A DNA stretch of 64,000 bases. Source: Candidatus Omnitrophota bacterium. Its GTDB lineage: Bacteria; Omnitrophota; Gorgyraeia; 2-02-FULL-51-18. A program made the translations under genes and the position numbers. The first letter of the stretch is position 1; the number at the start of each line of letters is the position of its first letter. The notes under the pieces are model-generated. The model saw only the letters and a program-made list of their open reading frames with translations, was not told where the DNA came from and made no database searches. The stretch covers positions 9,511 to 73,510 of the forward strand of contig JACPWF010000006.1 of the NCBI GenBank assembly GCA_016197155.1. The letters run 5' to 3'. Below are positions 7,567 through 60,713 of this stretch, one piece after another.

Positions 7567-7604
7567 GCCGATGCCACGAGTCACAAAATTAATATTTTAT
7601 TAAT

Positions 7605-7633
7605 TTGACAATTTCATTAAAAACAGGCATACT
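7605..7633 (+). promoter_or_regulatory. Sigma70-type promoter: TTGACA, 17-nt spacer, CATACT
   Basis: TTGACA (7605-7610), a 17-nt AT-rich spacer and CATACT (7628-7633) are followed by a GGAGAC Shine-Dalgarno and the ATG at 7654. Confidence 0.6.
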
Positions 7634-7653
7634 GGAGGCATCAGGAGACGAAA

Positions 7654-7914
7654 ATGACCACGATGCTCAAAATGAACCGTAACCGGCAAGTCAATATCCC
7701 CTCGGCTTTTGTCGCAAGGCTCAGCCTGGGCGAAGACCGGTACTTCAAAGCCGACCTTAAGGGAAACCATATCATTCTGACCCCGGTTGATCCGGTGGAG
7801 CGGGTTTTTTCCAAAGAAAGCCTTGACCTTGTCGAGGAAGTTTATGGACGGGAAAAGAAGTCGGCCAAACGGGTGACCCCGGCCTGGATCCAGAAGGCGC
7901 ATCGCCCGGCCTAA
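7654..7914 (+). CDS. AbrB/MazE/SpoVT-family antitoxin
   Basis: 86 aa. The N-terminal NRNRQVNIPSAFVARLSLGEDRYFKADLKGNHIILTPVD is a swapped-hairpin AbrB-type DNA-binding domain. The ORF ends one base before the start of the downstream toxin-like ORF. Confidence 0.7.
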   Translation: MTTMLKMNRNRQVNIPSAFVARLSLGEDRYFKADLKGNHIILTPVDPVERVFSKESLDLVEEVYGREKKSAKRVTPAWIQKAHRPA

Positions 7915-8232
7915 ATGCCCTTCGAGCTTTACTTTCTCCCCCCTTACGGGCGCTGTCTCAAGCATCTTGGAAACAAAGAAAAACGCATTGCCCGACTGGT
8001 CGTTTCCGCGCTTCTTGAATATTTCCACTCAAACTCTCCCACTGGCAACCCTTACATGATCCCTGTCGGGGGAAGGGCTTACCGTTTGGTTTTCAAAAAA
8101 CTGGACGGGGCTGTCTGGGAAGCGTACATTGAAAACCACGTTCGCGTTCTCACAAGACTCGACAAACACCGGCACTTTCTCGTCTTCGCCGGCAATCACG
8201 ATCAGGTCAGACAATTTCTAAAAGAAAATTAA
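7915..8232 (+). CDS. Putative toxin partner of the AbrB-type antitoxin (weak RelE/ParE-superfamily resemblance)
   Basis: 105 aa, immediately downstream of and translationally coupled to the antitoxin. The C-terminal AYRLVFKKLDGAVWEAYIENHVRVLTRLDKHRHFLVFAGNHDQV resembles RelE/YoeB-like cores. The family assignment is tentative. Confidence 0.45.
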   Translation: MPFELYFLPPYGRCLKHLGNKEKRIARLVVSALLEYFHSNSPTGNPYMIPVGGRAYRLVFKKLDGAVWEAYIENHVRVLTRLDKHRHFLVFAGNHDQVRQFLKEN

Positions 8233-11200: not shown

Positions 11201-14200
11201 CGTTCTGGCGCGGTCTATGCCAGGCGGGGACCAGTTCGGGGCGGAAGACGACCTCGTTGGCAAATGCGTGCTCGAGGGCGCCTCCCCCCGCGACAAACTG
11301 GACCGGCGTCCCGTCAGGATTCATGAAAAGAATGCCCACGCTTCCCGTTTTTCGCAAAATCCTCTCGTCGATGCGTACAGGCCCCGCGTCCTTTTCCAGC
11401 TCGCCCGTCATGCGCGGCTCAAGCTCCAGTAAAAGGAAATTCCGCAGAATGTTCTTACGAAAATCCTCCGGCACGGCCTCATCTTTTTTCTGATCGCTTA
11501 TTTTCTCCAGCCCCCAGGCGCAATATTTTAAAAAAGCCGTCCGGTACTCGTTAAAAAATGCGGCATTCCAGACCCGCGGCCACTTTTCCCGGAAATCGGC
11601 CATCCGCTCCGCCCTGCCGGGAGTCTCCCGCAGTTCCGCGAGGATTTTTGCTTTCACGCGCACCACGCCGGAAAGAACCAGGAGCTTCGAAAAAAATTCA
11701 TTGTCCGATTCCGCCGCCTCAGGCTCTGTTCGATCGCGCACAAACTCGGCGGCCGTGTTCCTTGTTTCCTGTATTTCCCGTAAAAATGCGCTCTCCCCCG
11801 GATGAGATTTTAAAAAATCACCGATCACCGCCTCTTGTTCATCGATGATCCGTTTGATATTTTGCGTGACCTGTTCCAAAAAACCGCGCGTCGAAACGGC
11901 TTCCCCTTTGATCCGGTTCGCGTCCATGATCCCGAGGACAAGCTCTACCGTATTCAATTCCCTGCTCACCCTGCCGCGGGGCGTGTGAAACGTGACAAGG
12001 GCTGTGTCGAAAACCGGGAGGTCGCTTGTCCATAAATCAGGCGGCGGAAGCGTTCCCGAATCCGACACGATCGTGACAAGGCCATCCCTCAGGTCAACAA
12101 CGGACCGGCCTGGCCCCACCCTGCCCGACGCAATCTCTTCGGCGGCGTACTGAATGGGCGTCAATAAATCGTCAAACTCCCGCGACCGCGGTTCCGGTCG
12201 GATCGGCGGGGTCTTTTGATGATTCCCGGGGGGCGCGTTTCCGCCGCGTCCGCGCCGCGTCCGCGCGGCGCCGGCACCCGCTAGCCGCGCGCCAAGCACG
12301 CCGCCCGTATCAAGCTCATGCCGGATTTTTTCAAACTCCAGCACGGCCATCGCGAAGGTCCAATTGGACCAGTTAAGCGCGGAGGCCCCGCGCATCCGGA
12401 ATTTGACCCGCCCTCCTTCCTCATAGCGCTCGATTTGTTCGGAAAAAGACTTGCCTTTCGGCGCCAGGTCCCTCAGAAAATTCAGGGTGTCTTGCGCCCT
12501 TTGAAAAAGCGCGCCAACGATTTGCCAGTAACGTTCGTCTCCGGGAAAAATCGTCTTACTCGTATTCACGTCGTGGATTCCCTGATGATTAATAAATTTT
12601 CTAAAGCTCTCCGAATTTATATCTATTTTTCTCTCGTCCAAAATTTTCCGTATCGCCTTCAAATTAAACAAAACCGCCCACAGCGTCGTGATCACCCACG
12701 CGTGCCCGGAGTCGTTGGGCGCTTCCGTGAAAGCCAGTCCGCCGTATTTGTCGCCGGGATAACGCCCCCACAACACCGTGCGCGGGAACCGGACCGTCTG
12801 CTCCGGGGATAAGGCAAATTTTCTGGCGAACACATCATCCAGCTGAACGTAAGTTTCCAGGATCGCGGGATCAAAAAACCCGTGGTACGGCTCCGGCAAA
12901 TTCAGCGTATAGGGAAAGATTGTCTGCGCGTCGAGACGGGTGGGTTTCTCACCATTGGGTCCTTCGAGACGCCCCGAGTTAAACACGTAGCGGTGGGCCA
13001 AAAGATAGTCGGCGGGACGTTCCCAAGTGTCCGGCCGGCCTTTGTAAATCGGCAGGACTTCCCTCTCCAAAAAATCGAGGGGGCCTTGGCCCTGTTCCAA
13101 TTCCGAATAGGGACGCCCCGCAAGCTCGGCCAAGCCATTCAACGCTTCCCGCGAGCGCGCGGCCGATACCATGCGCTTCAGAACACCGTAGTAAAGGATG
13201 TCATTCATGGCGTGCTTCCCGTGAAACTCCTCCCACGCGTCCAAATCGCGCGGGTCATTCTCCGGATCACGACTGCCACGGACGTATAAAATCGAATGGA
13301 GAATATTTTTACGGATCGCCTCGACGGCCCGTTCGAGAAGAAAAAGCGCTTTCCGCTCCCGCTCGGATCCCGCTTCCAATAGACCGTTCTCAAAAAGATC
13401 GAGCATCAGAATCGCCGCGTGGGCGGGTCCGTCGCTCTGGTCGCCCCAATTGGTCTCCGGTTCGGACAGGCCGTCCCATCCCAGTCTTTGGGCATTCAGT
13501 TTGTGAGTGGCCCCGTAACCCTGATAAAGGTAGTCGAGAAATTTATTCAAAATGAGCCGCGCATTTTCGAAAGCGCCCGCGCGCCTGGCCAGAAATGCGG
13601 CAAACTGGCACGCGTCACGCATCCAAGTAAAACCGTACAAAGGGTTGCCTTCCACGGAGCGAGGATCGTCGATCCCGTCGGTCAAATGGGAAGAAGCAAA
13701 AATCGCGCCCGTTTTCATCGCGTCACCCAGGGCATCCGAAAGGGCCGTCACAAACGCCTGTCTAAAATCTTCCCCCACTCCCAACTGCGCGGGCGCGGCT
13801 CTCGCTTCCAGGTTTCTCTCAGAACTCCCGACAAGCCGGTGCCGCCGGTCATCAACCGGCACGTGAATGAGAGCTTTTTGCCTTCCGAAAGGATAAAAAT
13901 ACGTATCCCTCGAGTCTTCCTTTACCCTCGCCCGGACAGTCAATCGATGGGTCCCCGGAACCATGGTGTTATTTTCAAAACGAACCTTGAAAAAAACTGC
14001 TTCCGGAGGAAGTCCTCCGTTACCTGAGCCCACGGAAATAATGTTGGCCGGATAACGCTGTCTTCTGTTGGTGTGGTTGCTTTCAATTTCAATAACAAGA
14101 CTGTCTCTAATTTTCCGCGGGTCAATCACCCCGTCTAAAAACAGAACGCCTTCGACCACCAAAGGTTGGTCCGGTCCTATCAGATAAGGCGTGTGGAATG

Positions 14201-17200
14201 AAGTGACCCTGTCATTATTCACCGAGAGCCAGCCGTCCGTATCGGTTTTTTTCTCATCCACGCGAAAGGGGAGATTCTCCACCGGATTAGCCGTCATTTT
14301 AAAAATATGAACCGTGGGCGAAGCTCTGTGAAAATAGGGCCTGAGGCCTATGCTCAAACCTTCCTTCGCCAACTGCCGCCCCGACCGGTCGTACTGGCGA
14401 AGGGACTGTCCCTCGCCAGGTAAATGGGGGGCCATGTCCCGAAGGCGGTAGTTTTTGTTAGGGTCCGGGCTGAAAAGAGGCTTCACATCAACCGACACAA
14501 AATCTTTCATGCCGTCTTCCCCGGGCTCGCTTTTCAGGGACACGGCATGATTGGAAAGATTGATGCCGACGATGAGAGCCGTTTGTGGATTTGTTTCCCC
14601 CCGATTTTTTATCCCAAAGATCAAAAAAGGTTTTCCTTTTTCCGGATAATGAAGGGAAACCGCTTCAGCCGCACCCAACTCCCTGCCCAATCTTTTTCTC
14701 AAATTGACCAAACGGCAAAGGTAGGCCCTTGTCGAGGCGCTCACATTTTTGAAATAATCATGGTCTGCGATTTGATTCCACTTGGGACCGTCCCCGAGCG
14801 GCCAGACCGCAAAAAGTGTCGCGATCACGCGCGCGGCCTCTTCCCCCTGAATGTCCTGATAGCGCCGCCTCTCGGCGGGTTCGTTGGGACCGGAGATGGG
14901 TCTAAAAACGCCGGAGAGTTCCAAGAAATCCGAGTCCAGATAAACACGAAACCATCTGTCGTAGGTCCCCGCCATCCGCGCGCCCCGTCCCCCTCGTCTC
15001 GGGGAGGCGATCACTTCAAAGGCCGTGTTAGCATGATCCTCGAGAAACGGGTAAGCTGTCTTAAGTTCGGAAAAACGCCTTCGCGCCTCGGTCATCCTCT
15101 CGGCGGGAGACACAAACTTCATCGCCTCGGCCGTCACATGGCGGAGCATGCGTTCAAAAGGCGTCAGATAATATTCGCCGAATTCCTGCACGCGCATGTC
15201 CCATGAATACTTTGAATTAAGCGCGTTCTCAACCACGTGCTTCCATTGATTCGAATTTTTGTAAACTGACAGCGCTTCCGCGATGGCGCCTAAAAACTCC
15301 TCGTGATTGTATCCCTCAAAAATAAAACCGTTGCCTGTCGGGTGACGACCGGCATCATAAACTTGAACGGTGTCCTGCAATCCTCCCGTCTTTCTCACAA
15401 TCGGCACCGTTCCGTAAAGCATCGCGATCGGCGGGGTGAGTCCGAACGGCTCTGTTCTTGAAGGGACAATAAACAGATCACTGCCTGCGTAAATCAGCTT
15501 GTCATTCGAATCCATTTCGTATCCATCCAGATTCACGGGATTCTTGTCCAAACGGTCATCGGAATCGTTCAAATAAAAACGAAATTGCCCGCCGTACCCG
15601 CTTTGCCACAAGTAGTGCGCCAGATTCCTGAAATTTGCCTTTTCATCGCCAAAACCGTTCATGTCGTTGAAAATGATGACCTGCGCCCCGAGGTCCAGAG
15701 TCTTTTGAAGGACATCCCGCACAAGACCCGTTCCTTTTTGCTCAGGATCCAGGCGCGCGATCATGGAAATGATCGGCACGTTCTCATCAACATTCAAATC
15801 AAACCGTCTTTGCAGTTCAGCTTTCGCTAAAGGTTTAATTTTTTCCATTTCTCTAACCGTTTCAAACCCGCGGTAAGCGCCGGACCCATTCCCGTTCCCC
15901 TTATCCAACCCATTGGCAATCGGATGCCAGGCCCCTTCATCGTGTCGCCTTTTGGCAATCTCATCCAAACCCCCTGTCGGAACAAGGTTTCCCATAATTT
16001 CATCGCCGTAACCCTTGCTGACCGCGTCCACCCCGTCGGCGAGCGCGATCGCCGCGCGCGTCAGATTGAATCCGCCGCGCAGGGCAAAATCGCGCGCGTA
16101 CTGCGTCGGATCCGAAAGCGTCAAACCGAGAATATCGAACCATTCATCCGGAAACTGGCCCTGATAAGTGGGTCCGGCGTTGTGGATCCTGTAAAAATAC
16201 TTGGCGCGGGAGAGAGGATCGTTTAAATCATTTCGTGGATCGAGATACCAGCCGGCATGCTCCATCCTCCCCAGAATAGGAACGAGCGCCGTCAGCCAGT
16301 CGTTGGCGTGAATCACGTCCGGCTTGGGCATGAGCCCTCCGCGAACCAACTCGGGAATCACCTTCATCACACTGCGCGAGAAAAAGACAGCCTGCCGGAG
16401 CGAAGTGTCGTTGTAGGTGGTGTCATAAAGATGATGAGTGTAGTCGAGCGCCTGATTCGTGGCGCCAAGAAGCCAGTAATAAACGCCGTTGACCATCGCC
16501 TGTCTCACCGCGCCGGGAACCTGGACGCCCGCGACAGGCGCGGAGTATTCGATGTCCGTTGGCCGCACATCAAAATCTCCTGATTTTCCGTTGGACGAAT
16601 GTCTATAATCCGGCATAAAAAGCGAAACAAACCCATCTTCCAAACCTAGACGCGCCAGCGCGGCCGCCTGCTCGGCGGCCGAGTCGCCGAGACCGCCTCT
16701 CTTGGCAAACGGCCTCGCCTCCGGAGTGACTAACACAATGTGCGGAGGATAACCCTTCCACGATACCGGTTTCACCCGTCCGGCCATCCGCGCACCGGCC
16801 GGCTGCACGCGGCGGCGATACTTTGGATCTCGCAAAAAGCGGAGCGCGCCTTTTTTAAACGTCCACTCAATCCCCCCATCTTTTCGTTTCCCCGTTATTG
16901 TTCCTTCGCGGATACCTTTTTTCACGATCAGGCCCCATAGCCCACGGTTGAAGGACTGTATTTCGTGGTTAAAAATGTTTACGCGAATGGCCTCCTCGCC
17001 GCCCGCGGATGACTGAAGCAGTGAATCCCAGCGGCGGAGCTGTCCGATGACCCGATCATTTTTCTCTGCTTGGATTTTCCGCCGCGGGATCCGCCTGACG
17101 CCGACACGCCTGAAGTGCCGCAAAACGGCCCGGTAGCCCACCGCTTCCAAATCAATCAGCTTGCCGGCCAGATCCACGATTTCAGCTTCAGAACCCCCTC

Positions 17201-19073
17201 TCGGAGCGGTGAGTGCCAAGTACACGGCTGGGCGCTTTTTCATGTCGGCCAACGTGGAACCCTCCTTGATCACCAGCGCCCTCAGAGCCATGCGGTAAAA
17301 ACGGTCTGTCTTGGCCAAGCGGAGGAGTTGTTCAAAAACATCCGTGTTGATTGTCAGTTCCCGCTGGTCCGGTCCCTCAATCGCGCGATCGATCCGGACA
17401 GCCGCCGCGCCCACCGCCTCATTTTTATCGCGACGGGTTCCGGCGGAAATAAAAACTTTGTTGGGGACATTCAAAAATTCATTCACCCACCCCCGCTCTT
17501 CCCGGCTCAAGCGATCCGAATTCCTAAAAAATTCTCTCAGGCCCCGAAGAATCTTTTCCGGACGGTTGTCCGCTGAGACGATGGCCGGGCCTTGAATAGA
17601 TTTAACCGGAGGCGCGGCATCCTCTTTCACTTCCAAAAAACGATAAACGAAACAAACGACCGACAATGAAACTGCGAATATTACTCCCCCCAAAAGCAGA
17701 TCTCGTCTGTTCACCAAATACCTTCTATTGGGTTCGGAGTGATCGTTCGGATCCTGTGCGGACAGCCTCGCGGCGAACAACCGGCTCATTGAATAACCTT
17801 GAACCAAAAGCGCGTAAATAACCGGGCGTGTCAGCCGGTCTAAATCCAGCTGTGCCGGATTAGACGAGTTTCTATGAGCTTGAATAGCGGAAACCGCCTC
17901 ATTTATCGCGTCATTATTCAGGCTCAGCGTTGAAATGAGCTCAACGATTTTCTCGCTGAATGGCTTCTGCCGGGGAAATTCTTGTTCTTCGGGTCTTATT
18001 TTTATGAACCAATTGTTCAACAGCTTTCCGACCTGCGAGATCCTTATTTCTTCGTCGTTCAATCGATTTCTTTTTTGTTCTAATTTCAAATTCTCTTGAT
18101 AATGATAAACGGTCGATTCATAAACGTCATGGGCTTCCCTAAAAATCTCTTCCTGGTTTGGGTAAACTTTTTTTAATATTCCCCACACCGCATCAAAAGT
18201 GACGTCGCTCGTCTGCCGGCCGGGGGTGACGGGTACATTGGTATAACCTGTGATACTCGCCAATCTCGCCCCGCCGGTTCCATGTTGCCAAGCGCTGGCC
18301 TCGTTCCTCAAACTCGCCAACCGCGCGGCGGCAAGCGGTTCAAAAATGGGCAGTGCCCGAACCCCTGAGACAGCCGGGGTCAGACCCCTGTCCGGCGATG
18401 GCCGGTGAGGGGTCAGGCCCCTCAAGGGCTCCAAAAGCACCTCTTCATATTTTTTCTGACTCGTTTCGGACGTGACATTCGGCGTGAGAACGACGTAGGA
18501 CCAGCCTTTTTCCTTGAATAATTTTTTGAGATGCGCGGTGTGGTAGCCGCCCGCGATGAGAATGGCCGCCTTCGGCGTCCGGAGAGTGGATTGTGCCTGC
18601 CTGCCGGACAGGCAGGGAGAGTGGGTCGTGGATTTATCCACCATCCACGATCCACCATCCACGATCCGCTGTGTATTTCTTACAAACGCCCTGTCTCTGG
18701 CATTCACAGACCCATAAAACCGTCTCAGCAATTTTTTCCCGTCCTCCAAAATATTTTTGCTGGGCACCATGTCCGCAAAACACCCGCGGTCGGCAAGCTC
18801 ACGGTTCACAAAAGCCAGCGTCGAGAGCGTCGAGAAATCTTTTTCGTTGAAATCAAACAGACGGAATTCCTTGGAGGACATCTGGATCCGGTAAGCACTT
18901 TCCAAAAGCCGCAGGTAACGGTCAATCGCATGTAGGGTCGGAGGGGTCAGAGGCCTCCGACCCCTTTTTAGAATGACGGAATACACCCTCTCCTCCGTCC
19001 GCTCCGACTCATTCAGAAGTGTTTTGTAAGTGACAGAACAAAAAATTCTTTTTTGTTCTGTCATCCCGAGCAA
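8229..19073 (-). CDS. Giant multidomain protein (up to 3,614 aa) with a GT5 glycogen/starch-synthase-like domain and a GH15 glucoamylase-like domain; the 5' end is ambiguous
   Basis: A single uninterrupted 10,845-bp ORF. GT5 motifs: [13 protein letters not shown] (KTGGL type), [14 protein letters not shown], and the C-terminal [39 protein letters not shown]. GH15 motifs: [24 protein letters not shown] (catalytic WEE) and [31 protein letters not shown]. One hydrophobic helix lies near aa 445 ([22 protein letters not shown]). About 1,700 C-terminal residues are unassigned. Start candidates are TTG 19073, ATG 19064 and ATG 18884. Confidence 0.85.
   Translation of the reverse strand: [3614 protein letters not shown]
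8231..8266. repeat. Direct repeat copy 2 (the true 3' end of the giant gene)
   Basis: Matches 7531-7566. It encodes the last 11 codons plus the stop of the giant ORF. Confidence 0.8.
18935..18964. repeat. REP-like GC palindrome GGGTCGGAGGGGTCAGAGGCCTCCGACCCC
   Basis: A member of the palindrome family that also occurs at 50798-50828 and 56551-56572. It lies inside the maximal giant ORF but upstream of its ATG at 18884. Confidence 0.6.
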
Positions 19074-39715: not shown

Positions 39716-40063
39716 TCATGCCATTTGAAGCGGCGCCCTTTTTGAGTGGATAACCTTCCGTATCCGATTGGCGACCACGGGTTTGAGTTGGATGACCTTC
39801 ATCCGAACCGTGAAGCCGATCGCCAACAACACTTTTTCGAGCGTCATCACGTTCGCAAAATCTCCGCTTTCAATTTTGGAGATATGCTGTTGGGTAACGC
39901 CCACTTTTTCAGCCAACCGCCTTTGGTTCAGATCGTGTTTTATGCGGTACTCAATGATCCGTTTTACAATTTCCAGCTTCTGCTCTTCAAGCTCGTAAAG
40001 TTCTTTGAAATAGGGATCTTTTAATTTTTCTTTGAGATGCTTATCCACGCTTTCGATTCTCAT
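39716..40063 (-). CDS. XRE-family HTH antitoxin (HigA-like)
   Basis: NQRRLAEKVGVTQQHISKIESG HTH motif, directly downstream of a Gp49/HigB-like toxin gene. Confidence 0.75.
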   Translation of the reverse strand: MRIESVDKHLKEKLKDPYFKELYELEEQKLEIVKRIIEYRIKHDLNQRRLAEKVGVTQQHISKIESGDFANVMTLEKVLLAIGFTVRMKVIQLKPVVANRIRKVIHSKRAPLQMA

Positions 40064-40074
40064 GCCGGCTCCTC

Positions 40075-40422
40075 CTACTGTCTTCTTATAAAGTCCGACC
40101 GCCTTTGAACGGCAAGCTCCCTCTCGTTTTTTGGGGCCTTGCCCGTTTTCTTCACGAACCCATTCGTAAGAATCGCTTTATCCTCATGAAAGAAAAAGTA
40201 TAAAATGCGGACGGCTCCTTCCTGCGTTTTGAATCTCAATTCGAAAATGGCCTCCCCAAGGTACTTCGCGTGGGGCTCGGGCAATTTGTGCCCGAATTTC
40301 TCAAGGAGCGACTTCACAAAGAAAAACTTCCTCTGGGTTTTGCGATCCAGCGAGTCCACAAACTCCCGGACGGGCGACCGGCCCGATTCAGTCAGGTAGT
40401 AGTAAGCGCTTATCCCTGCCAA
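40075..40422 (-). CDS. HigB/RelE-superfamily toxin (Gp49-like, toxin-first arrangement)
   Basis: 115 aa. KYLGEAIFELRFKTQEGAVRILYFFFHEDKAILTNGFVKKTGKAPKNE is the Gp49/HigB-type core. A small inverted repeat (ACAAC...GTTGT) lies in its upstream region. Confidence 0.7.
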   Translation of the reverse strand: MAGISAYYYLTESGRSPVREFVDSLDRKTQRKFFFVKSLLEKFGHKLPEPHAKYLGEAIFELRFKTQEGAVRILYFFFHEDKAILTNGFVKKTGKAPKNERELAVQRRSDFIRRQ

Positions 40423-43870: not shown

Positions 43871-44566
43871 TTATTCCCAAACCTCTGTCTCAGAAACCAC
43901 GTTCCCGTCTTTGTCGTACTGACGGACGATCTTTTTCTTGGGCTGGCTCGTGGACGCGTTCTGGGGCGCGGCCTGCTGGTAATAAACCGGCTGAGGCTGT
44001 GGCCGCGGCTGAGGGCTCGACGTGAGCGAATCCAAAAGCGCACTGCCGATCACGTTCGTTCCCGCGCCGATCAGAGCGCCTTTGCCGGCCTTTCCGCCCG
44101 AGGCCCCCGAGGCGATGGCGCCCGTGCCGGCGCCCAAAAGGGCATTTTTTAGAATTTTATTGTTGGGATTTTCCTGTTGGGGATACTGCTGAACGTACAC
44201 CGGCGCCTGTTCGACCGGTTGATAAGTGGTTTGCGTTTGAACCGGATAGGCCTGCGCGGGAGCCGCCTGGACATACTGGACCGGCTGTTGTTGCTGTTGA
44301 GGAGCCGGTGAACCGCTCAGGCTGTCCAATAAAGCGCTCCCAATCACGTTCGTCCCCGCTCCGATCAAAGCCCCTTTGCCGGCCTTTCCGCCGGAAGCGC
44401 TTGAGGCAATAGCCCCCGTCCCCGCTCCCAAAAGCGCGTTTTTCAAAACCTTTTTATTGGGATCTTCCTGTCCGGAATAATCCTGCCCGGCGGCCTTTGA
44501 AACCGTTCCTGAAAAAATAACGAGTGACGCCACACTGACCACCAAAAAACCCTTTAACGCTCTCAT
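43871..44566 (-). CDS. Secreted glycine-zipper protein with an internal tandem duplication
   Basis: A signal peptide is present. Two near-identical ~47-aa modules (NKKVLKNALLGAGTGAIASSASGGKAGKGALIGAGTNVIGSALLDSL) are separated by Q/P-rich linkers. The duplication is also visible at DNA level (~44021-44160 vs ~44330-44460). Confidence 0.7.
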   Translation of the reverse strand: MRALKGFLVVSVASLVIFSGTVSKAAGQDYSGQEDPNKKVLKNALLGAGTGAIASSASGGKAGKGALIGAGTNVIGSALLDSLSGSPAPQQQQQPVQYVQAAPAQAYPVQTQTTYQPVEQAPVYVQQYPQQENPNNKILKNALLGAGTGAIASGASGGKAGKGALIGAGTNVIGSALLDSLTSSPQPRPQPQPVYYQQAAPQNASTSQPKKKIVRQYDKDGNVVSETEVWE

Positions 44567-46340: not shown

Positions 46341-46499
46341 TTATTTATGCAAAGCTTGACGCGCCGAAATTCTTGCGACTTTGCCGTTTTTCCACACGGC
46401 AAGAGGTCGACCTGTTTCTTTATGCCGCTCTACTACCTGCCGAACGGCCTTCTTTAATGCCGCTTCCGCTTTGTCTTGTAATGTCATTCTTTTTTTCAT
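46341..46499 (-). CDS. Small ORF (52 aa) translationally coupled to the zeta-toxin-like gene (ATGA overlap)
   Basis: Hand-translated: MKKRMTLQDKAEAALKKAVRQVVERHKETGRPLAVWKNGKVARISARQALHK. It is below the ORF-track size cutoff. Its start overlaps the upstream stop. Confidence 0.35.
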   Translation of the reverse strand: MKKRMTLQDKAEAALKKAVRQVVERHKETGRPLAVWKNGKVARISARQALHK

Positions 46500-47095
46500 T
46501 TTAGAGTCGTCCACTTTCCAACTATTTTAAAATATTCTTGATAGTCCATTACTTCTACATTTCCATTCCGTCGCTTAGCAATTAACACTGGTGTAGTCCC
46601 GGAATTATCGAAAAGCATCCATGAATCAAAAGTAGACTCGTACTTAATAAAATTGCTCACGCCTCGAACAAACCGCCTTCGAACATCTACCGCAGGAACG
46701 TGATGCCCGCCTTCAGTCACACGATCTTTGATCCGAGCTATCGCTAATTCAGGGCTCGGAATCCACAAAAAGAAAAGGTGGAGCGAATAACCCTTCTCCT
46801 TCAATTCATTTAACAGATGCATATAGGATCTACCTGATAGTGTAGTTTCGAAGGCAAAATCGACCCCATGACCAGCATACTCGTCAATTCGTTGTAAAAC
46901 AAGTTTGCCGGCCTTGATCGCCGCGGCTCGCGGATCGAATGGCGCCAGTCCTTGTGCGATCAAGTCCGCATTCACAAAATTGGGACACTTCACATAATCT
47001 GGCAGAAACAACTTTGCAAATGTTGTTTTGCCTGAACCGTTTGGACCGGCGATGAGGTAGAGGTTTTTGGAATGCGGCATTCTTACGCCGCGCAC
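46496..47095 (-). CDS. Zeta-toxin-family P-loop kinase (AAA ATPase-like)
   Basis: Walker A LIAGPNGSGKTT, plus the overall PF06414-like pattern (DEYAGHGVDFAFETTLSGRSY...). Confidence 0.72.
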   Translation of the reverse strand: MRGVRMPHSKNLYLIAGPNGSGKTTFAKLFLPDYVKCPNFVNADLIAQGLAPFDPRAAAIKAGKLVLQRIDEYAGHGVDFAFETTLSGRSYMHLLNELKEKGYSLHLFFLWIPSPELAIARIKDRVTEGGHHVPAVDVRRRFVRGVSNFIKYESTFDSWMLFDNSGTTPVLIAKRRNGNVEVMDYQEYFKIVGKWTTLK

Positions 47096-50699: not shown

Positions 50700-50797
50700 T
50701 GTTCTCCCTTTTTGTTAATTTTAATTATTATTGTTAATTATTAATTAACTATTGATAATTATACATAACAAAGTTAACATTTTCAAGCCCCACCCGT

Positions 50798-50828
50798 GGG
50801 GTCGGAGGGGTCAGAGGCCTCCGACCCC
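50798..50828. repeat. REP-like GC palindrome GGGGTCGGAGGGGTCAGAGGCCTCCGACCCC; a separate 24-nt perfect palindrome GGTACCGGGTTCGAACCCGGTACC lies at 50839-50862
   Basis: Two strong hairpins in the divergent intergenic region between the elaB-like and FNR-like genes. Confidence 0.6.
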
Positions 50829-54918: not shown

Positions 54919-56025
54919 TCAAGAAATTTTGGAAAGCTTCCTCAAATATTCGTATCCGTAGAGCCCCGTCGCGTGGCCGTCGCTCCAGCGGATCTGAAGC
55001 GCGTACCGGCCCACGGGCTGGATCGCCGTGGCGCGGATATAGGAAGGAAGGGTTTCGGCGTGGAGCGTGCGGTGACCGGTTTTTTCGTCCACGCAGGCCG
55101 CGCAGGGACAGGCCAGGCGCAGGTCGCGCGACTCAAAGACGCTCTTTTTGCCGTCCGACCACTCCACCCAAACCTGCGGCTCGTTGGGAGAGCTCAGCGC
55201 GACCGGCAATTTTTTGTCCGAGCCCTGAGTGCCGCGGATGCGGATCTGTGCGGCCAGATTTTCCGCGATCGCCATAAAATGTTTCGCCGCGGGGCTGTCG
55301 GGATCGGCGTGAACGACGGGGTCTCCCCCGTCCGCTGACTCACGAATAGAGGTGACGAGCGGAATGCCTCCCAGATAGGGAATCCCGAGCGTCTCCGCCG
55401 CGCGGCGCGCGCCGCCCGAGCCGAAAATTTCATCCTTTTGCCCGCAGTGGCCGCACACGTAATGGCTCATGTTTTCAATGACCCCCAAAACCGGCGCGTT
55501 CAATTTATCGAACATCATGATTGCCTTTTGCGCGACATTCCACGCCACGTCCTGCGGCGTCGAGACCACCACCGCTCCCGTGATCGGGATCGTCTGGCAG
55601 AGGCTCAGCTGAATATCCCCCGTCCCCGGCGGCAAATCGACGAACAGGGTGTCCAGCTCCCCACATTCCACGGTCCCCAGAAAATCCTGGACCATCTTGT
55701 GAAGCATCGGCCCGCGCCAGATCACCGCCTCGTTCGCGGGCACGAAAAATCCCATGGAGATGATTTTGAGGCCGTATTTTTCGACGGGGGCGATGCGGCC
55801 GGTCTCGAGGGAAACGGGCTTGTCCGTCACTCCCAGAATCGTCGGAATGCTCGGACCGTAGACGTCGGCGTCCATGATCCCCACCTTCCGGCCGGTCGCG
55901 GCCAGCGCCAGCGCGAGATTGGCGCTCACGGTGGATTTTCCCACGCCGCCTTTGCCGCTGGCGACGGGGATCACGTTTTGGACTTTGGGGATCAGTTTTT
56001 CTTTTGCGTTGCCGAGGATGGCCAT
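54919..56025 (-). CDS. Mrp/ApbC/NBP35 Fe-S cluster carrier ATPase fused to a C-terminal DUF971 domain
   Basis: GKGGVGKST Walker A, the CGHCGQ motif, and a C-terminal about 90 aa with a DUF971-like pattern (WVEWSDGKKSVF...LRLACPCAAC). Confidence 0.88.
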   Translation of the reverse strand: MAILGNAKEKLIPKVQNVIPVASGKGGVGKSTVSANLALALAATGRKVGIMDADVYGPSIPTILGVTDKPVSLETGRIAPVEKYGLKIISMGFFVPANEAVIWRGPMLHKMVQDFLGTVECGELDTLFVDLPPGTGDIQLSLCQTIPITGAVVVSTPQDVAWNVAQKAIMMFDKLNAPVLGVIENMSHYVCGHCGQKDEIFGSGGARRAAETLGIPYLGGIPLVTSIRESADGGDPVVHADPDSPAAKHFMAIAENLAAQIRIRGTQGSDKKLPVALSSPNEPQVWVEWSDGKKSVFESRDLRLACPCAACVDEKTGHRTLHAETLPSYIRATAIQPVGRYALQIRWSDGHATGLYGYEYLRKLSKIS

Positions 56026-56056
56026 TTTCGTCTGGGGGTTATTTTACACTTTCCAC

Positions 56057-56085
56057 TTGAAATTAAAAAGGTTTTCGTCTATACT
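56057..56085 (+). promoter_or_regulatory. Sigma70-type promoter: TTGAAA, 17-nt spacer, TATACT
   Basis: TTGAAA at 56057-56062 and TATACT at 56080-56085. The same architecture as the promoter at 7605. Confidence 0.6.
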
Positions 56086-56091
56086 GCTCTT

Positions 56092-56223
56092 ATGTTCAGA
56101 TCCATTCGACTTCACAACGCACTGTCCACGATCGCTACGGCCGTAGCGGCATGGCGCTTTATGCCTTGTCATTACTGCTCCAAGCGCACGGGTGTGGGTT
56201 GGGAGGAGAAGGGGGTTCTTTAG
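56092..56223 (+). CDS. Candidate leaderless small ORF (44 aa; hydrophobic helix plus a CHYC motif)
   Basis: The ATG lies 7 nt after the -10 box. The product is MFRSIRLHNALSTIATAVAAWRFMPCHYCSKRTGVGWEEKGVL. There is no Shine-Dalgarno sequence. Alternatively this region is a non-coding leader or sRNA. Confidence 0.3.
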   Translation: MFRSIRLHNALSTIATAVAAWRFMPCHYCSKRTGVGWEEKGVL

Positions 56224-56268
56224 TTCGCATTGAGTTGAGTCAATAAATAAAACCTAAAATCCGATCAA

Positions 56269-56303
56269 CCCATTACCGAAAGGTGATGGGTTTCTTGTTT
56301 TTA
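56269..56303 (+). terminator. Intrinsic-terminator-like hairpin (9-bp stem, GAAA loop) followed by a U-rich tract, upstream of the ATG at 56325
   Basis: CCCATTACC-GAAA-GGTGATGGG followed by TTTCTTGTTTTT. Confidence 0.55.
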
Positions 56304-56324
56304 GGGCAACCGAAGGAGGAAAAA

Positions 56325-56537
56325 ATGTTAAAAGTCATTGAAAATCCGGGGCGCAAAAAAAGAGGGCAGACGGTGAAGCACCCCGTAAAGCTCACGGCCC
56401 TCTTCTACCTCAAAGAGGCTTTGCTCAGAGAACGGTACGAGACTTGCCAGGAGATCATCGCGACGGCCAAGGAGTTCGGGGCGGCGGAATTCGAAATCGC
56501 CGACCTCCTCGAAGACCCGAGGCGAAGCCCGACCTAA
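56325..56537 (+). CDS. Hypothetical small protein (70 aa)
   Basis: A strong AAGGAGG Shine-Dalgarno lies 6 nt upstream of the ATG. The ORF-track version (from 56283) starts inside the terminator hairpin, so it is trimmed. Confidence 0.55.
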   Translation: MLKVIENPGRKKRGQTVKHPVKLTALFYLKEALLRERYETCQEIIATAKEFGAAEFEIADLLEDPRRSPT

Positions 56538-56550
56538 AAGCGGGGTGGTT

Positions 56551-56572
56551 GGGGTCAGAGGCCTCTGACCCC
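56551..56572. terminator. Perfect 22-bp palindrome GGGGTCAGAGGCCTCTGACCCC between convergent genes (REP-like; probable bidirectional terminator)
   Basis: Seen directly in the sequence, between the stop at 56537 (+) and the nadA stop at 56583 (-). Confidence 0.6.
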
Positions 56573-56582
56573 TACGACCCCA

Positions 56583-57563
56583 TCAGTAGCTGGCGATCAC
56601 CGCGTTGGGGTGATCCTTGGAGACATCCATCATGCGCCGGAGCGTTTTTTCCGCGCGCTGACGGATGCCTTCGGGGATCTCGATCCGGTGTTCCAGGACC
56701 TCCAGCGCGTGGGCCACCCAGCCGAGGGTCGTCATCTTCATCGTTTGGCAGACGAATTGCTCCGTCGGGACGATGAAGCGTTTTGTGGGATGGTCTTTTT
56801 TTAATTTAAAAATCATCCCCATTTCCGTGCCGATGATGAAGGTGTCGGCCCTGCTTTTGGCGATGTAGGGCGAGAAGCCGCTCGTCGAGCACACGTGATC
56901 GGCCAGGTCAATCACATCCGGCGGGCATTCGGGGTGCGCGATAAAAGGCGCGCCCGGATATTTCGCCTTCGTCCTCAAAACATCCTCAGCCGTCACGCGG
57001 ATGTGCGTTGTGCAGAATCCCGACCAGAGAATGATTTCCTTTTCGGGGCAGAAACGCCGGACATAATGGCCGAGGTTTTTGTCGGGGACGAATAAAATTT
57101 GTCTGTGCGGGAGAGATTTGACAATTTGGACCGCGTTGGAGGATGTGCAGGCAATGTCGCTCTCGGCCTTCACCTCGGCGGAGCTGTTGACGTAGCAAAC
57201 CACGGCCGCGTCGGGAAATTCCTTCTTTTTTTCGCGCAGGCGATCGGCGGTGGCCATGAGCGCCATCGGGCAGTCGGCCTCGCGCACGGGCAGGATCACG
57301 GTTTTTTCGGGATTTAAAATTTTAGCGCTCTCGGCCATGAAATCCACGCCGCAGAAAACGATGACGGCCGCGCCCGTGCCGATTGCGGCCTTGGAGAGCG
57401 CCAGGGAATCCCCGAGGATGTCCGCGACTTCCTGCACCTCAAAATTCTGGTAGTTGTGCGCGACAAGGTAGGCGTTTCGTTCCTTTTTCAAACGAAACAC
57501 TTTCTCGCGGAGCTTTTCCTTCAGCGCTTTCGGATTGGCTTTTTCTAAAACGTCGAGTTCCAA
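56583..57563 (-). CDS. nadA: Quinolinate synthase A
   Basis: 326 aa with a NadA pattern (the three conserved 4Fe-4S Cys ligands and HPECP). It starts with TTG at 57563-57561, at the edge of a 71-bp duplication. Confidence 0.9.
   Translation of the reverse strand: MELDVLEKANPKALKEKLREKVFRLKKERNAYLVAHNYQNFEVQEVADILGDSLALSKAAIGTGAAVIVFCGVDFMAESAKILNPEKTVILPVREADCPMALMATADRLREKKKEFPDAAVVCYVNSSAEVKAESDIACTSSNAVQIVKSLPHRQILFVPDKNLGHYVRRFCPEKEIILWSGFCTTHIRVTAEDVLRTKAKYPGAPFIAHPECPPDVIDLADHVCSTSGFSPYIAKSRADTFIIGTEMGMIFKLKKDHPTKRFIVPTEQFVCQTMKMTTLGWVAHALEVLEHRIEIPEGIRQRAEKTLRRMMDVSKDHPNAVIASY
57491..57561. repeat. Direct repeat copy 1 (71 bp; 5' end of nadA)
   Basis: 69/71 identical to 59576-59646. 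Confidence 0.85.
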
Positions 57564-57726
57564 CGTCTATATCCTCTCTGCTTAGGCCGTCATCCCCGAA
57601 ACCCCTTATCGGGGATCAAGCGGTTGATCCCCCCGCATTCGTGGGAATGACAACTTATAAGTTCGCTTCATCTTCCTTGTTTGTGAAAATGAACAAATCA
57701 CGTGGGTTTGAGCAATGCTCTTAAAA

Positions 57727-58854
57727 TCAGTCGGGATTGACTTTTCTTCTTCCCTGTATTGAATAAATTATTCTGGCATCTTTTATACCACTTGCGGTGA
57801 GACTCTTAATAAAAACACTGGCTAAAGGCAAGGCATCTTTGGCGGGAATCTCTCCTGGCCAACCTGGAACGGGGTATTTGGGACCAGCTAAAATATTAAA
57901 TTGCAATCTCGTTTGGTATCCATGCAAATCCGTAAAAGAAACATACAGCTCGCCAGTTTCCTTTGGTCGGTTTTCAAACATATAACTTATCATTTCATCC
58001 CAAGACATACTTCCGGAATGAATCTTAGTCCCTTTAACACAAAGAGAACCCGTTGCGACCCATTTACCGAAAGATTTCCCTTTTAATTCAGCGATCTTTT
58101 TACAAGTATTTTCGTCAAACACTTTGGTTATGGTTTGCATGGAAATTATATTACCTTCTCCATCTTTAGAATCTAGAAGCTGGTGCTCATCGATCGCATA
58201 ATAATTTTCAGAAAAGGAGGGCATAAAAAGTTTCTTACGCAAGAATGCCTCCAAAGATATAGACAAAGCAGGTATTATTGATTCAATTTCAGACCGCCAA
58301 CCCTCAATGTAGAGTTGCAATTCGTAATCGGGTCCACTGCTAGGTGTAAATACATAAAAATACTTTAGCGACCGCTGAGTTATTAGATTATCAACACAAT
58401 CTATTGTTGAGGTTTGAATTATAATCGGTCCGTTTTCTTTTAAATCAAACGAAATAGACCCCGTAACATTTCCGGGACAGAATGTTCCAGATTCAACATT
58501 TTTTTGAGTCAGTCGTTCGGCTTGCTTTAGGGCTTGAATGTGTTGCTCTTTGGAATACTTATTATCCAGTTTTAGTTTCCCAAGAAGAATCATCGGTTTT
58601 CCCGGAAGGACCGGATTGACCCAGCCTCCTTCAAGCTCAAATGCTGGCATGATTTTGTTCTTCGTAGCAACAAATAAGGGCGAATTCAATTGGGCATTCG
58701 TGAGACGCTGAAACCCTGAGGGAGGGCTTAGCAAATCGGCATCAGATATAGCATTATTCTGGGCATGAGAAACGAAGGGGTAGTTTAAAGAACCAAAAAT
58801 AAATAGCGTACCCAGACTTCCGTTGGCTATTACCTTTTTAATTTTAGGATTCAT
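57727..58854 (-). CDS. Hypothetical secreted protein, encoded in the low-GC island
   Basis: 375 aa with an N-terminal signal peptide. The local GC (~40%) is well below the ~60% background. Confidence 0.6.
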   Translation of the reverse strand: MNPKIKKVIANGSLGTLFIFGSLNYPFVSHAQNNAISDADLLSPPSGFQRLTNAQLNSPLFVATKNKIMPAFELEGGWVNPVLPGKPMILLGKLKLDNKYSKEQHIQALKQAERLTQKNVESGTFCPGNVTGSISFDLKENGPIIIQTSTIDCVDNLITQRSLKYFYVFTPSSGPDYELQLYIEGWRSEIESIIPALSISLEAFLRKKLFMPSFSENYYAIDEHQLLDSKDGEGNIISMQTITKVFDENTCKKIAELKGKSFGKWVATGSLCVKGTKIHSGSMSWDEMISYMFENRPKETGELYVSFTDLHGYQTRLQFNILAGPKYPVPGWPGEIPAKDALPLASVFIKSLTASGIKDARIIYSIQGRRKVNPD

Positions 58855-59393
58855 GTTGGCGCTTGAAAATTGGACTCACATTCGTTGGTGATTTTGGAGA
58901 GCTTCGCAATATGCTTTTCACAAAGGGTCATTACGTCTTCGTCTAGAATGTCATCAAAACAGCACCGGATTTTACCCGTAGGTTTTGCAGTTGTTATTAA
59001 TGGTCTACTGCGAACAACATTTACCGTTGCTCCGCCTGTTCCCATAAGATGATATAAAACCACCAGATCCTTGGTTCCTTCACCGGTTGTTTCTTCAATT
59101 AGGCTTACGTGAGGATGACTTTGCACAGGACGCTCGTGTATGGTAATATCCCTTTGCCTATCCAAGTATTTCATAAACTTGTCTTGACGCATTTCTCCGA
59201 CTTTTTTTTCATACCATTTCTCAAATCCGGGAACACTGAAAAATTCCTTTTTCATCATAAATGTTATACTACGAGAGGCTGATAAAAATGCACTGATGTT
59301 GTACCTAAAAGCATCGGTATGAAAAGGGCTCTCCTTTGCACGATCCAAAAAGTATTTTGCTTCATTAAGCTTATCCGCTGTAGCAGTCACCAA
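58851..59393 (-). CDS. Hypothetical protein, encoded in the low-GC island
   Basis: 180 aa. Low GC. It overlaps the downstream gene by 4 bp. Confidence 0.55.
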   Translation of the reverse strand: MVTATADKLNEAKYFLDRAKESPFHTDAFRYNISAFLSASRSITFMMKKEFFSVPGFEKWYEKKVGEMRQDKFMKYLDRQRDITIHERPVQSHPHVSLIEETTGEGTKDLVVLYHLMGTGGATVNVVRSRPLITTAKPTGKIRCCFDDILDEDVMTLCEKHIAKLSKITNECESNFQAPT

Positions 59394-59547
59394 ATCTAAT
59401 CCTTTAAAATCTTATCATAACAGCTGTCACAAATCGGCTGTGTCTGAGCTTCCCCCGGCCCTCCAAAGGTTACGGGTCTCTCACAAGTACTTGGCTCTTC
59501 TTTCCCACATACCGAGCATTCCACAAACTACTCCTTGTAATAAAATT

Positions 59548-59648
59548 TAGTGCCCTGCTCCTAAACTGGAAGCGAGACGAAACACTTTCTCGCGGAGCTT
59601 TTCCTTCAGTGCTTTCGGGTTGGCTTTTTCTAAAACGTCGAGTTCCAT
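59548..59648 (-). pseudogene. Truncated duplicate of the nadA 5' end (33 codons; MELDVLEKANPKALKEKLREKVF then divergent)
   Basis: Its ATG at 59648-59646 lies 1 nt after the nfu stop codon. Its first 23 codons are identical to the nadA N-terminus. Confidence 0.5.
59576..59646. repeat. Direct repeat copy 2 (71 bp; ancestral nfu-nadA junction)
   Basis: Matches 57491-57561 with 2 mismatches. It ends in the ATG, where copy 1 has TTG. Confidence 0.85.
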
Positions 59649-59649
59649 T

Positions 59650-60225
59650 TTACTGGACCTGCACGACCTCTTTCACTTCGGGGATGAGTGACTTCAGGCG
59701 ATTTTCCACGCCCATCTTGAGCGTCAGGATGGAGCTGGGGCAGGAACTGCACGAACCCTGGAGGTGCAGGGTCACGACGCCGTTTTCATAACCGTAAAAC
59801 GTGATGTCTCCCCCGTCCATCGCGACGGCGGGACGGATCTCATTGTCCAAAATTTCGCGGATCCGCCGCTCGATGTCGCCGTTTGCGCCCGAGCCGGCGC
59901 CGGGCGCTCCCGAAGGCCCCGGCCCCTGGGAAAAAAGCGGTCCGTCCGATTCGAGAACCGTCCGGATCGTCCGCGTGATGTTTTCGACGATCGACTGCCA
60001 GCTGGCCGATGGATTTTTTGTGACGGTGATGAAATTGTGGCCGGCCATCACGCCCAAAACCGACTCGCTCTCAAAAAGCGCTTCGGCAAGCCTCGATCCC
60101 TTGGCCGATGCCTTGTCCGGAAAATTCAAAGAGCCGGCCGGGACAAGCACGCGGTTCACGTTAAATTTGAGCGTGTTCGGGTTCGGCGTCATCTCCGCCG
60201 CTATTTCCAAAATGCCTGGATTCAT
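59650..60225 (-). CDS. Nfu/NifU-like Fe-S cluster delivery protein (Nfu_N plus NifU C-domain)
   Basis: N-terminal Nfu_N-like region (TPNPNTLKFNV) and a C-terminal CxxC (LQGSCSSCPSS). Confidence 0.82.
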   Translation of the reverse strand: MNPGILEIAAEMTPNPNTLKFNVNRVLVPAGSLNFPDKASAKGSRLAEALFESESVLGVMAGHNFITVTKNPSASWQSIVENITRTIRTVLESDGPLFSQGPGPSGAPGAGSGANGDIERRIREILDNEIRPAVAMDGGDITFYGYENGVVTLHLQGSCSSCPSSILTLKMGVENRLKSLIPEVKEVVQVQ

Positions 60226-60713
60226 TTTCCTTCTCCTTCGGTTGACACTTGGCCTTTTTTCCTGCCCGCGTCCGCCAGCGCGTCCTCAAGCGCGTGCCAA
60301 ATGAGCGTCGCGCATTTCACTCGGACGGGAAATTGCCTGACCCCTTCGAAAATTTTGAGCCGCCCCACGGCCGCGCGCGTGTCCTCGCTCACCGGATCGC
60401 GCGTCAAAAAACGGAGGAACTGGTTTTTCAGCGCCTCGGCGTCCTTCACGGGCTTTCCCTCTATGAACGAAGTCATCATGGAAGCGCTGGATTTGGAGAT
60501 GGCGCAGCCGGAGCCTTCGAATCCCACCGATTCTATTTTACCACTTCCGTCGACTTTGAGATAAAGGTGATAATCGTCCCCGCAGAGGGGATTTCGCCCG
60601 TGCGAATAGTGCGTGGCGCCCTCCGGCTTCCTGAAATTCCTCGGCCGGCGGTTGTGGTCGAGGATCACTTCCTGGTAGAGGTCGTTCAATTTCACTTCGC
60701 CCATGCCGGTCAT
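60222..60713 (-). CDS. SufU/IscU-type Fe-S assembly scaffold
   Basis: The three conserved Cys are in NPLCGD, GSGCAIS and VKCATL contexts. Confidence 0.85.
   Translation of the reverse strand: MTGMGEVKLNDLYQEVILDHNRRPRNFRKPEGATHYSHGRNPLCGDDYHLYLKVDGSGKIESVGFEGSGCAISKSSASMMTSFIEGKPVKDAEALKNQFLRFLTRDPVSEDTRAAVGRLKIFEGVRQFPVRVKCATLIWHALEDALADAGRKKGQVSTEGEGK

Follow-up and report, generated by a model that had tools for sequence, protein, structure and literature searches.

A candidate CIME-like micro-island without an integrase gene at the 5' end of nadA in an Omnitrophota genome

We have analysed a stretch of 64,000 nt (hereafter the window) from a Candidatus Omnitrophota bacterium, taken from a 74-kb contig of a metagenome-assembled genome (MAG) (JACPWF010000006.1, positions 9,511 to 73,510; locus tags HYZ52_00875 and HYZ52_00880). 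Between nfu and nadA, which encode a NifU-like Fe-S scaffold protein and quinolinate synthase A, the window carries an island of about 2.0 kb of low-GC DNA bracketed by two copies of a 71-nt sequence, which is the 5' end of nadA itself. The island is a tidy and fairly ordinary footprint of horizontal gene transfer. We think it probable, with room left for other explanations, that it is an att-flanked, integrase-less micro-island akin to the cis-mobilizable elements (CIMEs), which would have preserved its target gene by providing a surrogate 5' end.

Structure of the nfu–nadA locus

nfu, the island genes and nadA all lie on the minus strand and follow each other in that order in the direction of transcription (Table 1). 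Repeat search and MAFFT alignment gave a direct repeat of 71 nt whose copies are identical at 69 of 71 positions and start 2085 nt apart, an agreement (97%) far beyond chance. Within the 64-kb window the only other long direct repeat of such a spacing class is a 37-nt pair around a toxin–antitoxin (TA) cassette. Both mismatches between the 71-nt copies fall at synonymous third-codon positions (AAC/AAT and GCA/GCG), and the repeat includes exact runs of 33 and 28 nt.

The last gene of the suf cluster ahead of the insertion, nfu, ends with its stop codon directly against the distal copy (TAA-A-ATG), which on the minus strand reads ATG GAA CTC... and opens an open reading frame (ORF) of 33 codons. 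This relic keeps the ancestral ATG, one nucleotide past the nfu stop, runs from the repeat into the island and terminates 22 nt before the start of the first island gene. The proximal copy is read as ...GAGAGGATATAGACG TTG GAA CTC... and continues into the full NadA, the first T of the TTG start (57563) lying outside the repeat. Three genes, termed here p42, p180 and p375, occupy the island in the same orientation as suf-nfu-nadA; p180 and p375 share an ATGA overlap of 4 nt, and p375 is followed by a non-coding tail of 163 nt that holds a 69-nt hairpin. The initial annotation of this DNA had recognized the 71-bp repeat with its two mismatches, the abutment of the distal copy on the nfu stop and the dead-end ORF that it opens, all of which stand, although its coordinates for the repeat were off by one base. 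It had likewise described the overlapping 375-aa and 180-aa genes correctly as a pair of hypothetical genes, and had missed p42, the third gene of the island.

Independent evidence for the left junction came from the Logan assembly of run SRR12113391, which contains a contig of 1872 nt (L112) that is 100% identical to window positions 59606-57735. Its start lies exactly 30 nt (k-1) inside the distal repeat, i.e. at a de Bruijn branch point, and since the contig begins inside the distal repeat, the repeat-to-island junction is present in the raw reads. L112 ends about 6 nt ahead of the p375 stop codon and 170 nt short of the proximal repeat, which could reflect a drop in coverage or a strain variant at the right end of the island.

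Table 1. Coordinates of the features of the nfu–nadA locus and of the rest of the window (numbered from the first nucleotide of the window)
Feature	Position	Strand	Basis or description
nfu (NifU-like Fe-S scaffold)	59650-60225	-	Pfam Nfu_N 3.1e-24, NifU 3.3e-27
Distal 71-nt copy, attL-like	59577-59647		Displaced original nadA 5' end: codons 2-24 plus TG of ATG
33-codon dead-end relic ORF	59547-59648	-	Sequence: MELDVLEKANPKALKEKLREKVFRL followed by ASSLGAGH and stop
p42, 42 aa, CxxC...CxxC zinc-ribbon-like ORF, first island gene	59396-59524	-	AAGGAG-N6-GTG upstream
p180, 180 aa, cytoplasmic helical-bundle protein, PF26900 (Phage_lambda_Ea47) N-terminal family	58851-59393	-	Similarity to PF26900, phrog_19262 and lambda Ea47; AlphaFold model
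p375, 375 aa, secreted two-domain protein	57727-58854	-	Signal peptide, fold search, HMMER family
Imperfect palindrome/hairpin, about 69 nt, GTCATTCCCAC...GGGGATGAC	57586-57654	-	Right end of the island
Island-supplied nadA translation-initiation region	57564-57585	-	GAGAGGA, 8 nt, TTG
Proximal 71-nt copy, attR-like	57492-57562		Present working 5' end of nadA
8-bp inverted repeat GTTTCGTT-N9-AACGAAAC	57474-57498		nadA codons 22-30; A-rich 9-nt spacer
nadA (quinolinate synthase A), intact, apparent TTG start	56583-57563	-	Pfam NadA 1.7e-117; 81-90% identical to 8 related MAGs
HicA/HicB-like module	6985-7483	-	Low-GC islet
Second insertion of the same design	7529-8265		37-nt direct repeat 7529-7565 and 8229-8265, 89% identical
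TA-like two-gene cassette, 0.66 kb	7566-8228 (genes 7654-7914, 7915-8232)	+	86-aa and 105-aa pair
3614-aa ORF (giant gene)	8229-19073	-	Includes a segment resembling the glycogen/starch-synthase type
Gp49/HigB-like toxin and HTH_3 antitoxin	39716-40422	-	Low-GC islet
Zeta-toxin/AAA-like 199-aa protein	46496-47095	-	Low-GC islet

Composition of the island and the locus in related genomes

The GC content is 0.36-0.43 between the repeat copies versus 0.55-0.62 outside, in agreement with the drop already claimed from the sequence. The two large island genes (GC 0.395 and 0.405, GC at third codon positions (GC3) 0.348 and 0.365 for p375 and p180, respectively) lie 6 to 10 standard deviations from 28 host genes, whose values are 0.581 ± 0.019 for GC and 0.717 ± 0.057 for GC3, and their codon preferences for Arg, Ile, Gly and Leu are inverted with respect to the host.

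A scan with NadA through 185,579 species-representative genomes yielded eight relatives with NadA proteins 81-90% identical, which allow a comparison of the uninterrupted site at the species level. By tblastn, the order sufU-nfu-nadA is kept in seven of these eight genomes, the remaining one (L012) having nadA without sufU or nfu matches, while p375, p180 and p42 left no trace in any of the eight. Since the relatives keep nfu and nadA without the island genes, the island appears as a lineage-specific insertion, and the horizontal acquisition advanced in the initial annotation is upheld by both composition and comparative genomics; the arrangement that would mark the genes as ancestral, namely relatives with the same genes and no repeat, was encountered in none of the eight. 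In the closest relative (L006, NadA 90% identical), nfu and nadA are separated by 4 nt (nfu-TAA-ATCA-ATG), and in others by spacers of 30-130 nt filled with palindromic multicopy intergenic elements. Two relatives even harbour a 1-Cys peroxiredoxin gene of ordinary GC between nfu and nadA (L009, 5131-5955; L010, 5090-5743), so that the junction is variable in this lineage also without the island. In all five relatives with a readable start (L006-L010) nadA begins with ATG, in line with the proposal that the present TTG replaced an ancestral ATG.

The rebuilt 5' end of nadA

In spite of the insertion, nadA is intact. The exact NadA protein read from the TTG or from three other candidate starts had no record in a collection of 15 billion proteins, and it is possible that in the deposited annotation the gene has a different start or is marked as a pseudogene. 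Ahead of the TTG, the island supplies a putative translation-initiation region and, further upstream, the hairpin that forms its right end. The hairpin, like the stretch of roughly 100 nt that precedes the proximal copy, has a GC content of about 0.53, above that of the cargo, and the stretch 57560-57730 (171 nt), which contains the hairpin, folds with a z-score of -3.07, none of 200 shuffled sequences being as stable. Palindromic intergenic elements of the form GTCAT(T/C)C...GATGAC occur upstream of nadA in several relatives (L007, 5909-6000; L011, 5875-5967; L035, 1575-1667 and 4676-4769) and are multicopy there, with three copies in 13 kb of L011. The right-end hairpin is of the same type (as in L007 and L035) and single-copy, no further copies of it being found in the window or in the relatives' loci. 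Because this GC-richer hairpin resembles the type found upstream of nadA in relatives, the sequence suggests that the proximal upstream region was acquired, as DNA preceding nadA, from another Omnitrophota host.

An arm of the inverted repeat GTTTCGTT-N9-AACGAAAC, within the nadA coding sequence, marks the inner boundary of the direct repeat. In relatives this inverted repeat is kept as TTGCGC-N11-GCGCAA through compensatory wobble changes at third positions; three pairs have changed on both sides and none of 500 shuffles reached the observed covariation score, evidence that is weak because it comes from nine sequences and a structure taken from one of them. The inverted repeat could be the core site of a recombinase, an mRNA hairpin or a coincidence of codons, and the placement of the inner boundary on it leans, weakly, towards a recombinase site.

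Origin of the insertion

Our favoured account, which seems to us reasonably probable as a whole, is that a cassette without integrase entered the 5' end of nadA by recombination with a nadA fragment borne by the element. The incoming DNA, presumably circular, would have carried a near-identical nadA 5' segment, and reciprocal recombination between this copy and the chromosomal segment would have produced the order attL–cargo–attR. The original 5' end and its ATG beside the nfu stop would have been displaced, surviving as the 33-codon relic, while the incoming copy, with its own hairpin, Shine–Dalgarno sequence and TTG start, would have been fused to the nadA body, a fusion by which the gene would have been preserved. 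Excision would be predicted to give an attP of the form hairpin-repeat-CTCGCTTCC and an attB of the form nfu-repeat-TTGAAAAAGG with the distal-type variants C/A. Such a strategy would correspond to the 'gene fragment stored in attP' with which integrative elements restore their target coding sequences (PMC7192596).

A second insertion in the window shows the same design, as the initial annotation had pointed out. The 37-nt repeat around the TA-like cassette is made up of the final 12 codons of the 3614-aa gene together with the stop, and thus represents a duplication of a gene 3' end; its four mismatches in 37 positions are all non-synonymous and its longest exact run is 14 nt. In both insertions the outer edge of the repeat is a gene terminus, the start codon of nadA in one case and the stop codon of the 3614-aa gene in the other. 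This coincidence is expected if coding sequence is all that the element-borne fragment and its target have in common, and is not expected for a random duplication. An element-borne fragment is therefore favoured over a target-site duplication by the match between the outer repeat edge and the start codon, by the like behaviour of the TA-cassette insertion, by the differences between the repeat copies and by the GC-richer hairpin region of relative type that precedes the proximal copy.

With attL-like and attR-like copies present and a recombinase absent, the island would be either a CIME-like element or a satellite mobilised in trans, the CIME being by analogy its nearest named category. None of the three island proteins contains a recombinase domain, their predicted folds being a helical bundle and a PsbP-like domain, which bears out the earlier statement that the island has no integrase. 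No integrase or recombinase was found either among 30 other mid-size ORFs of the window, which are of housekeeping type, TA type or unassigned. The window contains no tRNA or tmRNA gene according to a dedicated scan, and the island is thus not tRNA-linked.

Elements with an attP-borne gene fragment (e.g. SXT at the prfC 5' end, or the islands mapped with Islander and TIGER; Mageeney et al. 2020, PMC7192596) are likewise foreign DNA of atypical composition flanked by attL/attR direct repeats, with an empty site in relatives. Their repeat is also the terminus of a conserved housekeeping gene, which is rebuilt from the element-borne fragment while the displaced fragment marks the other end. The island differs from them in having no integrase or excisionase, in its size of only 2.0 kb with three genes, in the long identity block of 71 nt and in being known from sequence alone. 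CIMEs, which keep attL and attR and have lost the integration genes (PMC5704250), offer a closer parallel. Those of the streptococcal ICESt1/ICESt3 type also combine attL and attR at the end of a housekeeping gene with accessory cargo and neither recombinase nor transfer genes, so that mobilisation would need an incoming element of matching specificity. The island departs from them in its 5' target, CIMEs usually residing at 3' ends, in the lack of signs of decay from a larger element or of tandem accretion, and in that no cognate integrative and conjugative or integrative and mobilizable element is known in Omnitrophota, where nadA-targeting elements have not been systematically searched.

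Several observations weigh against this account. We found neither a recombinase nor an excised circle, nor an empty site at the strain level, and a metagenome scan for a 22-mer of the nfu–nadA junction gave no matches. Cassettes with gene-terminus duplications were also absent from about 90 kb of the relatives' sequence. An origin as a CIME by decay is not demonstrated, because the 2 kb are filled by three genes with no visible integrase remnant. Moreover, the Logan assembly (k=31) breaks at the repeat and cannot phase the nfu side, and a block of 71 nt with 97% identity could equally support RecA-dependent Campbell-type recombination or homology-facilitated illegitimate recombination.

The latter processes underlie the strongest competing explanation, unlikely in our judgement though to be taken seriously, in which no site-specific recombinase intervenes and the island derives from a related donor strain. 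Such a donor would already have had the cargo upstream of its own nadA, together with the hairpin spacer and the TTG start; one crossover would have occurred within nadA, and the other, an illegitimate one, would have joined the two DNAs after the recipient's codon 24, duplicating the 71 nt. The repeat, with its exact runs of 33 and 28 nt, is indeed long and similar enough for homologous pairing, and its outer edge lies where homology would end, at a junction whose spacers are hypervariable among relatives. The lack of an integrase nearby and the resemblance of the right arm to a native nadA upstream region are also accommodated by this scenario. It is opposed by the TA cassette, which has the same architecture with a repeat (37 nt, 89% identical) that is a poor RecA substrate, by the lack of any donor-type locus in the databases searched, and by the coincidence of the inner boundary with a conserved inverted repeat, which looks rather like the core site of a recombinase.

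A transposition-type insertion, with a 71-nt target-site duplication produced by widely staggered cuts or replicative repair, was already disfavoured and is in our view very improbable. A direct duplication of target sequence does flank the insert exactly, and since any of three bases out of four ahead of TG would leave nadA with a usable start codon, its survival could be luck. However, the island ends show no terminal inverted repeats (496 of 500 shuffles score at least as high), its proteins include no transposase, and repeats of 71 and 37 nt far exceed known bacterial target duplications, which measure 2-15 bp. In addition, the copies differ at two sites in the 71-nt repeat and at four of 37 in the TA cassette, and the repeat edges are gene termini in both cases.

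Least credible of all is an assembly artefact, in which the Omnitrophota contig would have taken in a separate low-GC replicon that also has the 71-nt segment: the sequence does come from a MAG contig and the Logan assembly breaks exactly at the repeat without confirming the link to nfu, yet the non-identical copies indicate distinct loci rather than a single collapsed node, 71 nt is presumably shorter than typical reads and large assembly k-mers, L112 holds the left junction at full identity, and the replicon would even so carry a nadA 5' fragment, that is, an attP. An integron gene cassette was rejected as well; the 69-nt hairpin has no correctly oriented core sites (attC RYYYAAC ... GTTRRRY) on inspection, a weak test made without an attC model, and no intI was present among the window ORFs tested.

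Island genes and their possible roles

p180 is the only island protein with an association to defence islands. Its homologues, six at first, amounted to at least 618 by profile search, and are all unnamed, most of them being stand-alone proteins of 170-185 aa from Omnitrophota, Cloacimonadota, WOR-3 and unbinned metagenomes. PF26900 is precomputed on P0002 and on most of the 120 p180 homologues listed, the local copy of Pfam being without this model. Residues 9-82 match phrog_19262, a family of unknown function (E 6.2e-6), and the N-terminus of lambda Ea47 shows 23% identity to residues 8-120 (tblastn, E 3e-3). Ea47 is a non-essential product of the lambda b region whose function is unknown. 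Both have in common a helix of the FRYNLSAFLSAxRS type, whereas p180 is a 180-aa stand-alone protein and Ea47 has 410 aa, and the p180 family is cellular. A scan of IMG/VR with the p180 profile confirmed no relatives, a PDB sequence search with the same profile gave spurious matches only, and a BFVD fold search retrieved one unnamed phage protein (E 0.01).

Residues K7, F14, F28, L36, R40, S41, E49, W59, H85, F145 and D152 are the same in all 71 aligned family members, and R80 in nearly all (at least 90%), which defines an R-x4-H motif (R-D-x3-H) within RQRDITIHE. AlphaFold predicts a helical bundle (mean pLDDT 74.7, helices above 90) in which residues 83-137 form a disordered insert. All eight independent contexts of the family are defence or mobile neighbourhoods with no constant partner gene. 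The family follows directly after TIR_2 proteins twice, and its other neighbours include restriction-modification systems of the MjaI, FokI, ICEA and Eco57I types, an SNF2/PLD helicase, a KAP NTPase, an ImmA/HTH pair and a large serine recombinase. p180 could be a helical protein with a part in conflict or defence, possibly an RNase related to HEPN. It carries the R-x4-6-H motif of HEPN-superfamily RNase toxins (HEPN-MNT, Abi-type). This HEPN reading fails at the profile level: hhalign against a HEPN protein of PF05168 gave a probability of 0.1, and no HEPN Pfam family appeared among the matches of the 71 members, nor any PDB sequence match. Lambda Ea47, in turn, lacks the invariant family His, having Lys in its place (RNTIEK).

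p375 bears a Sec signal peptide at about residues 1-31 and two domains. By structural superposition with family members, the N-terminal domain (about 40-210) has the fold of PsbP/Mog1/DcrB/LpqN/MTC28-like proteins, which include the immunity proteins TplEi, Tsi3 and Tli4 of type VI secretion systems (T6SS). It differs from these proteins in having no sequence-level membership, in its extra C-terminal domain (about 213-365), which belongs to a small-secreted-protein family of its own (150-186 aa), and in that no toxin neighbour, ligand or partner is known. A word-indexed homology search returned p375 itself only, while exhaustive HMMER found 15 relatives, with one full-length homologue of 339 aa (43% identical) and about 13 secreted proteins of 150-186 aa covering only residues 213-365; two more matches are a 121-aa fragment and a 238-aa protein. 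The full-length homologue (P0122) adjoins a HEPN-MNT pair. A C-domain homologue 61% identical to p375 belongs to a small islet of low GC that has dnaB and bamA on its two sides, and stand-alone C-domain relatives occupy a conserved SPFH-X-cupin-YbaB neighbourhood in two large contigs, with purM on the upstream side (in L105) and purD on the downstream side, which is an ordinary chromosomal, housekeeping context. Tblastn against phage and plasmid collections gave no match to p375, and a PDB sequence search with its profile only spurious ones. From its modelled fold, p375 would be a periplasmic binding-type protein. As a separate observation, the dnaB of one metagenomic contig (L098, 2595-4661) encodes 688 aa with a Hint-like insert and appears to contain an intein.

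p42 had no credible homologue, its match to DUF7685 (E 0.0024) being below the cut-off, and it was called as a gene in the Logan contig gene set only; its sequence suggests a zinc-ribbon micro-protein.

The initial annotation saw in the secreted and cytoplasmic proteins a pair typical of toxin-immunity or defence cassettes, a proposal that did not hold. The idea of a toxin-immunity or two-gene defence module, with cytoplasmic p180 and secreted p375 as cognate partners, can draw on the 4-nt overlap of their genes, the defence-island setting of the p180 family, the position of P0122 beside a HEPN-MNT pair and the p375 N-domain fold, common to several T6SS immunity proteins and Eag chaperones (5h7y, 4luq, 7wdk, 1tu1, 6xrb). 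Nevertheless, we regard it as most improbable. The two families never co-occurred in the eight independent p180-family contexts or in the p375-family contexts examined, and the module is not supported for this reason. PADLOC (PADLOC-DB 2.0) returned no family at E <= 1 for the three proteins, Pfam and NCBIfam gave only sub-threshold matches with no toxin or immunity domain, and PHROGs matched p180 alone. Furthermore, the C-domain family of p375 resides in the SPFH-X-cupin-YbaB housekeeping context in two genomes, and the PsbP-like fold is a general-purpose scaffold for binding in the periplasm. The cargo is most readily viewed as a mosaic of accessory genes that are independent of each other, with no cognate pair.

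Regarding expression, a terminator and promoter scan of the minus strand gave 3 and 4 sites versus 3.8 and 6.3 in shuffles, with no excess, and the only minus-strand terminator-like match within the island (58978-58966, 5 pairs) falls inside the p180 coding sequence. Since the cargo is co-oriented with its neighbours and the gaps between cargo and nfu and between cargo and nadA contain no terminator-like or promoter-like matches, the island genes are probably read through from the suf-nfu operon. An Rfam scan of 56000-60500 turned up neither a riboswitch nor another known RNA, its one match being a sub-threshold snoRNA attributable to chance.

A wider scenario can be drawn from these elements, which we would count as a long shot. 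Omnitrophota would host recombinase-less micro-cassettes of 0.7-2 kb with a surrogate gene terminus, inserting into housekeeping genes at their ends and mobilised in trans by a recombinase that maybe recognizes GTTTCGTT-N9-AACGAAAC at the crossover point in nadA, and these would spread conflict genes, including the stand-alone Ea47-N-like family with its at least 618 members as a new single-gene HEPN-like defence effector.

Other features of the window

The TA-like cassette of the second insertion and the HicA/HicB-like module stand in tandem between nuoA and the giant gene (6985-8265). No gene-terminus repeats surround the other low-GC islets of the window, i.e. the HicAB-, HigB-HTH- and zeta-like ones. 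GC-rich palindromes resembling repetitive extragenic palindromic (REP) elements (GGGGTCAGAGGCCTCTGACCCC) occur in at least three places (18932-18964, 50796-50828 and 56540-56581), the last of them between the converging 3' ends of nadA and an 84-aa ORF, and are probably bidirectional terminators or REP elements. Finally, the gene of a 231-aa Gly-zipper protein contains a direct repeat of 161 nt (44031-44485, 78% identical, spacing 294 nt), which points to an internal protein repeat.

Concluding remarks

The island does not overturn current understanding. It provides a base-resolved example of how a bacterium of a candidate phylum gains accessory genes without breaking an essential gene of NAD biosynthesis. 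Given that two integrase-less cassettes lie within 64 kb, genes may commonly move in Omnitrophota by way of micro-islands mobilised in trans or in cis. Our analysis also draws attention to two uncharacterised families, one of small secreted proteins and the other of widespread Ea47-N-like helical proteins found near TIR, restriction-modification and KAP NTPase genes. As a cellular family with a conserved R-x4-H motif, the latter offers a way into the function of a classic phage gene, lambda ea47.

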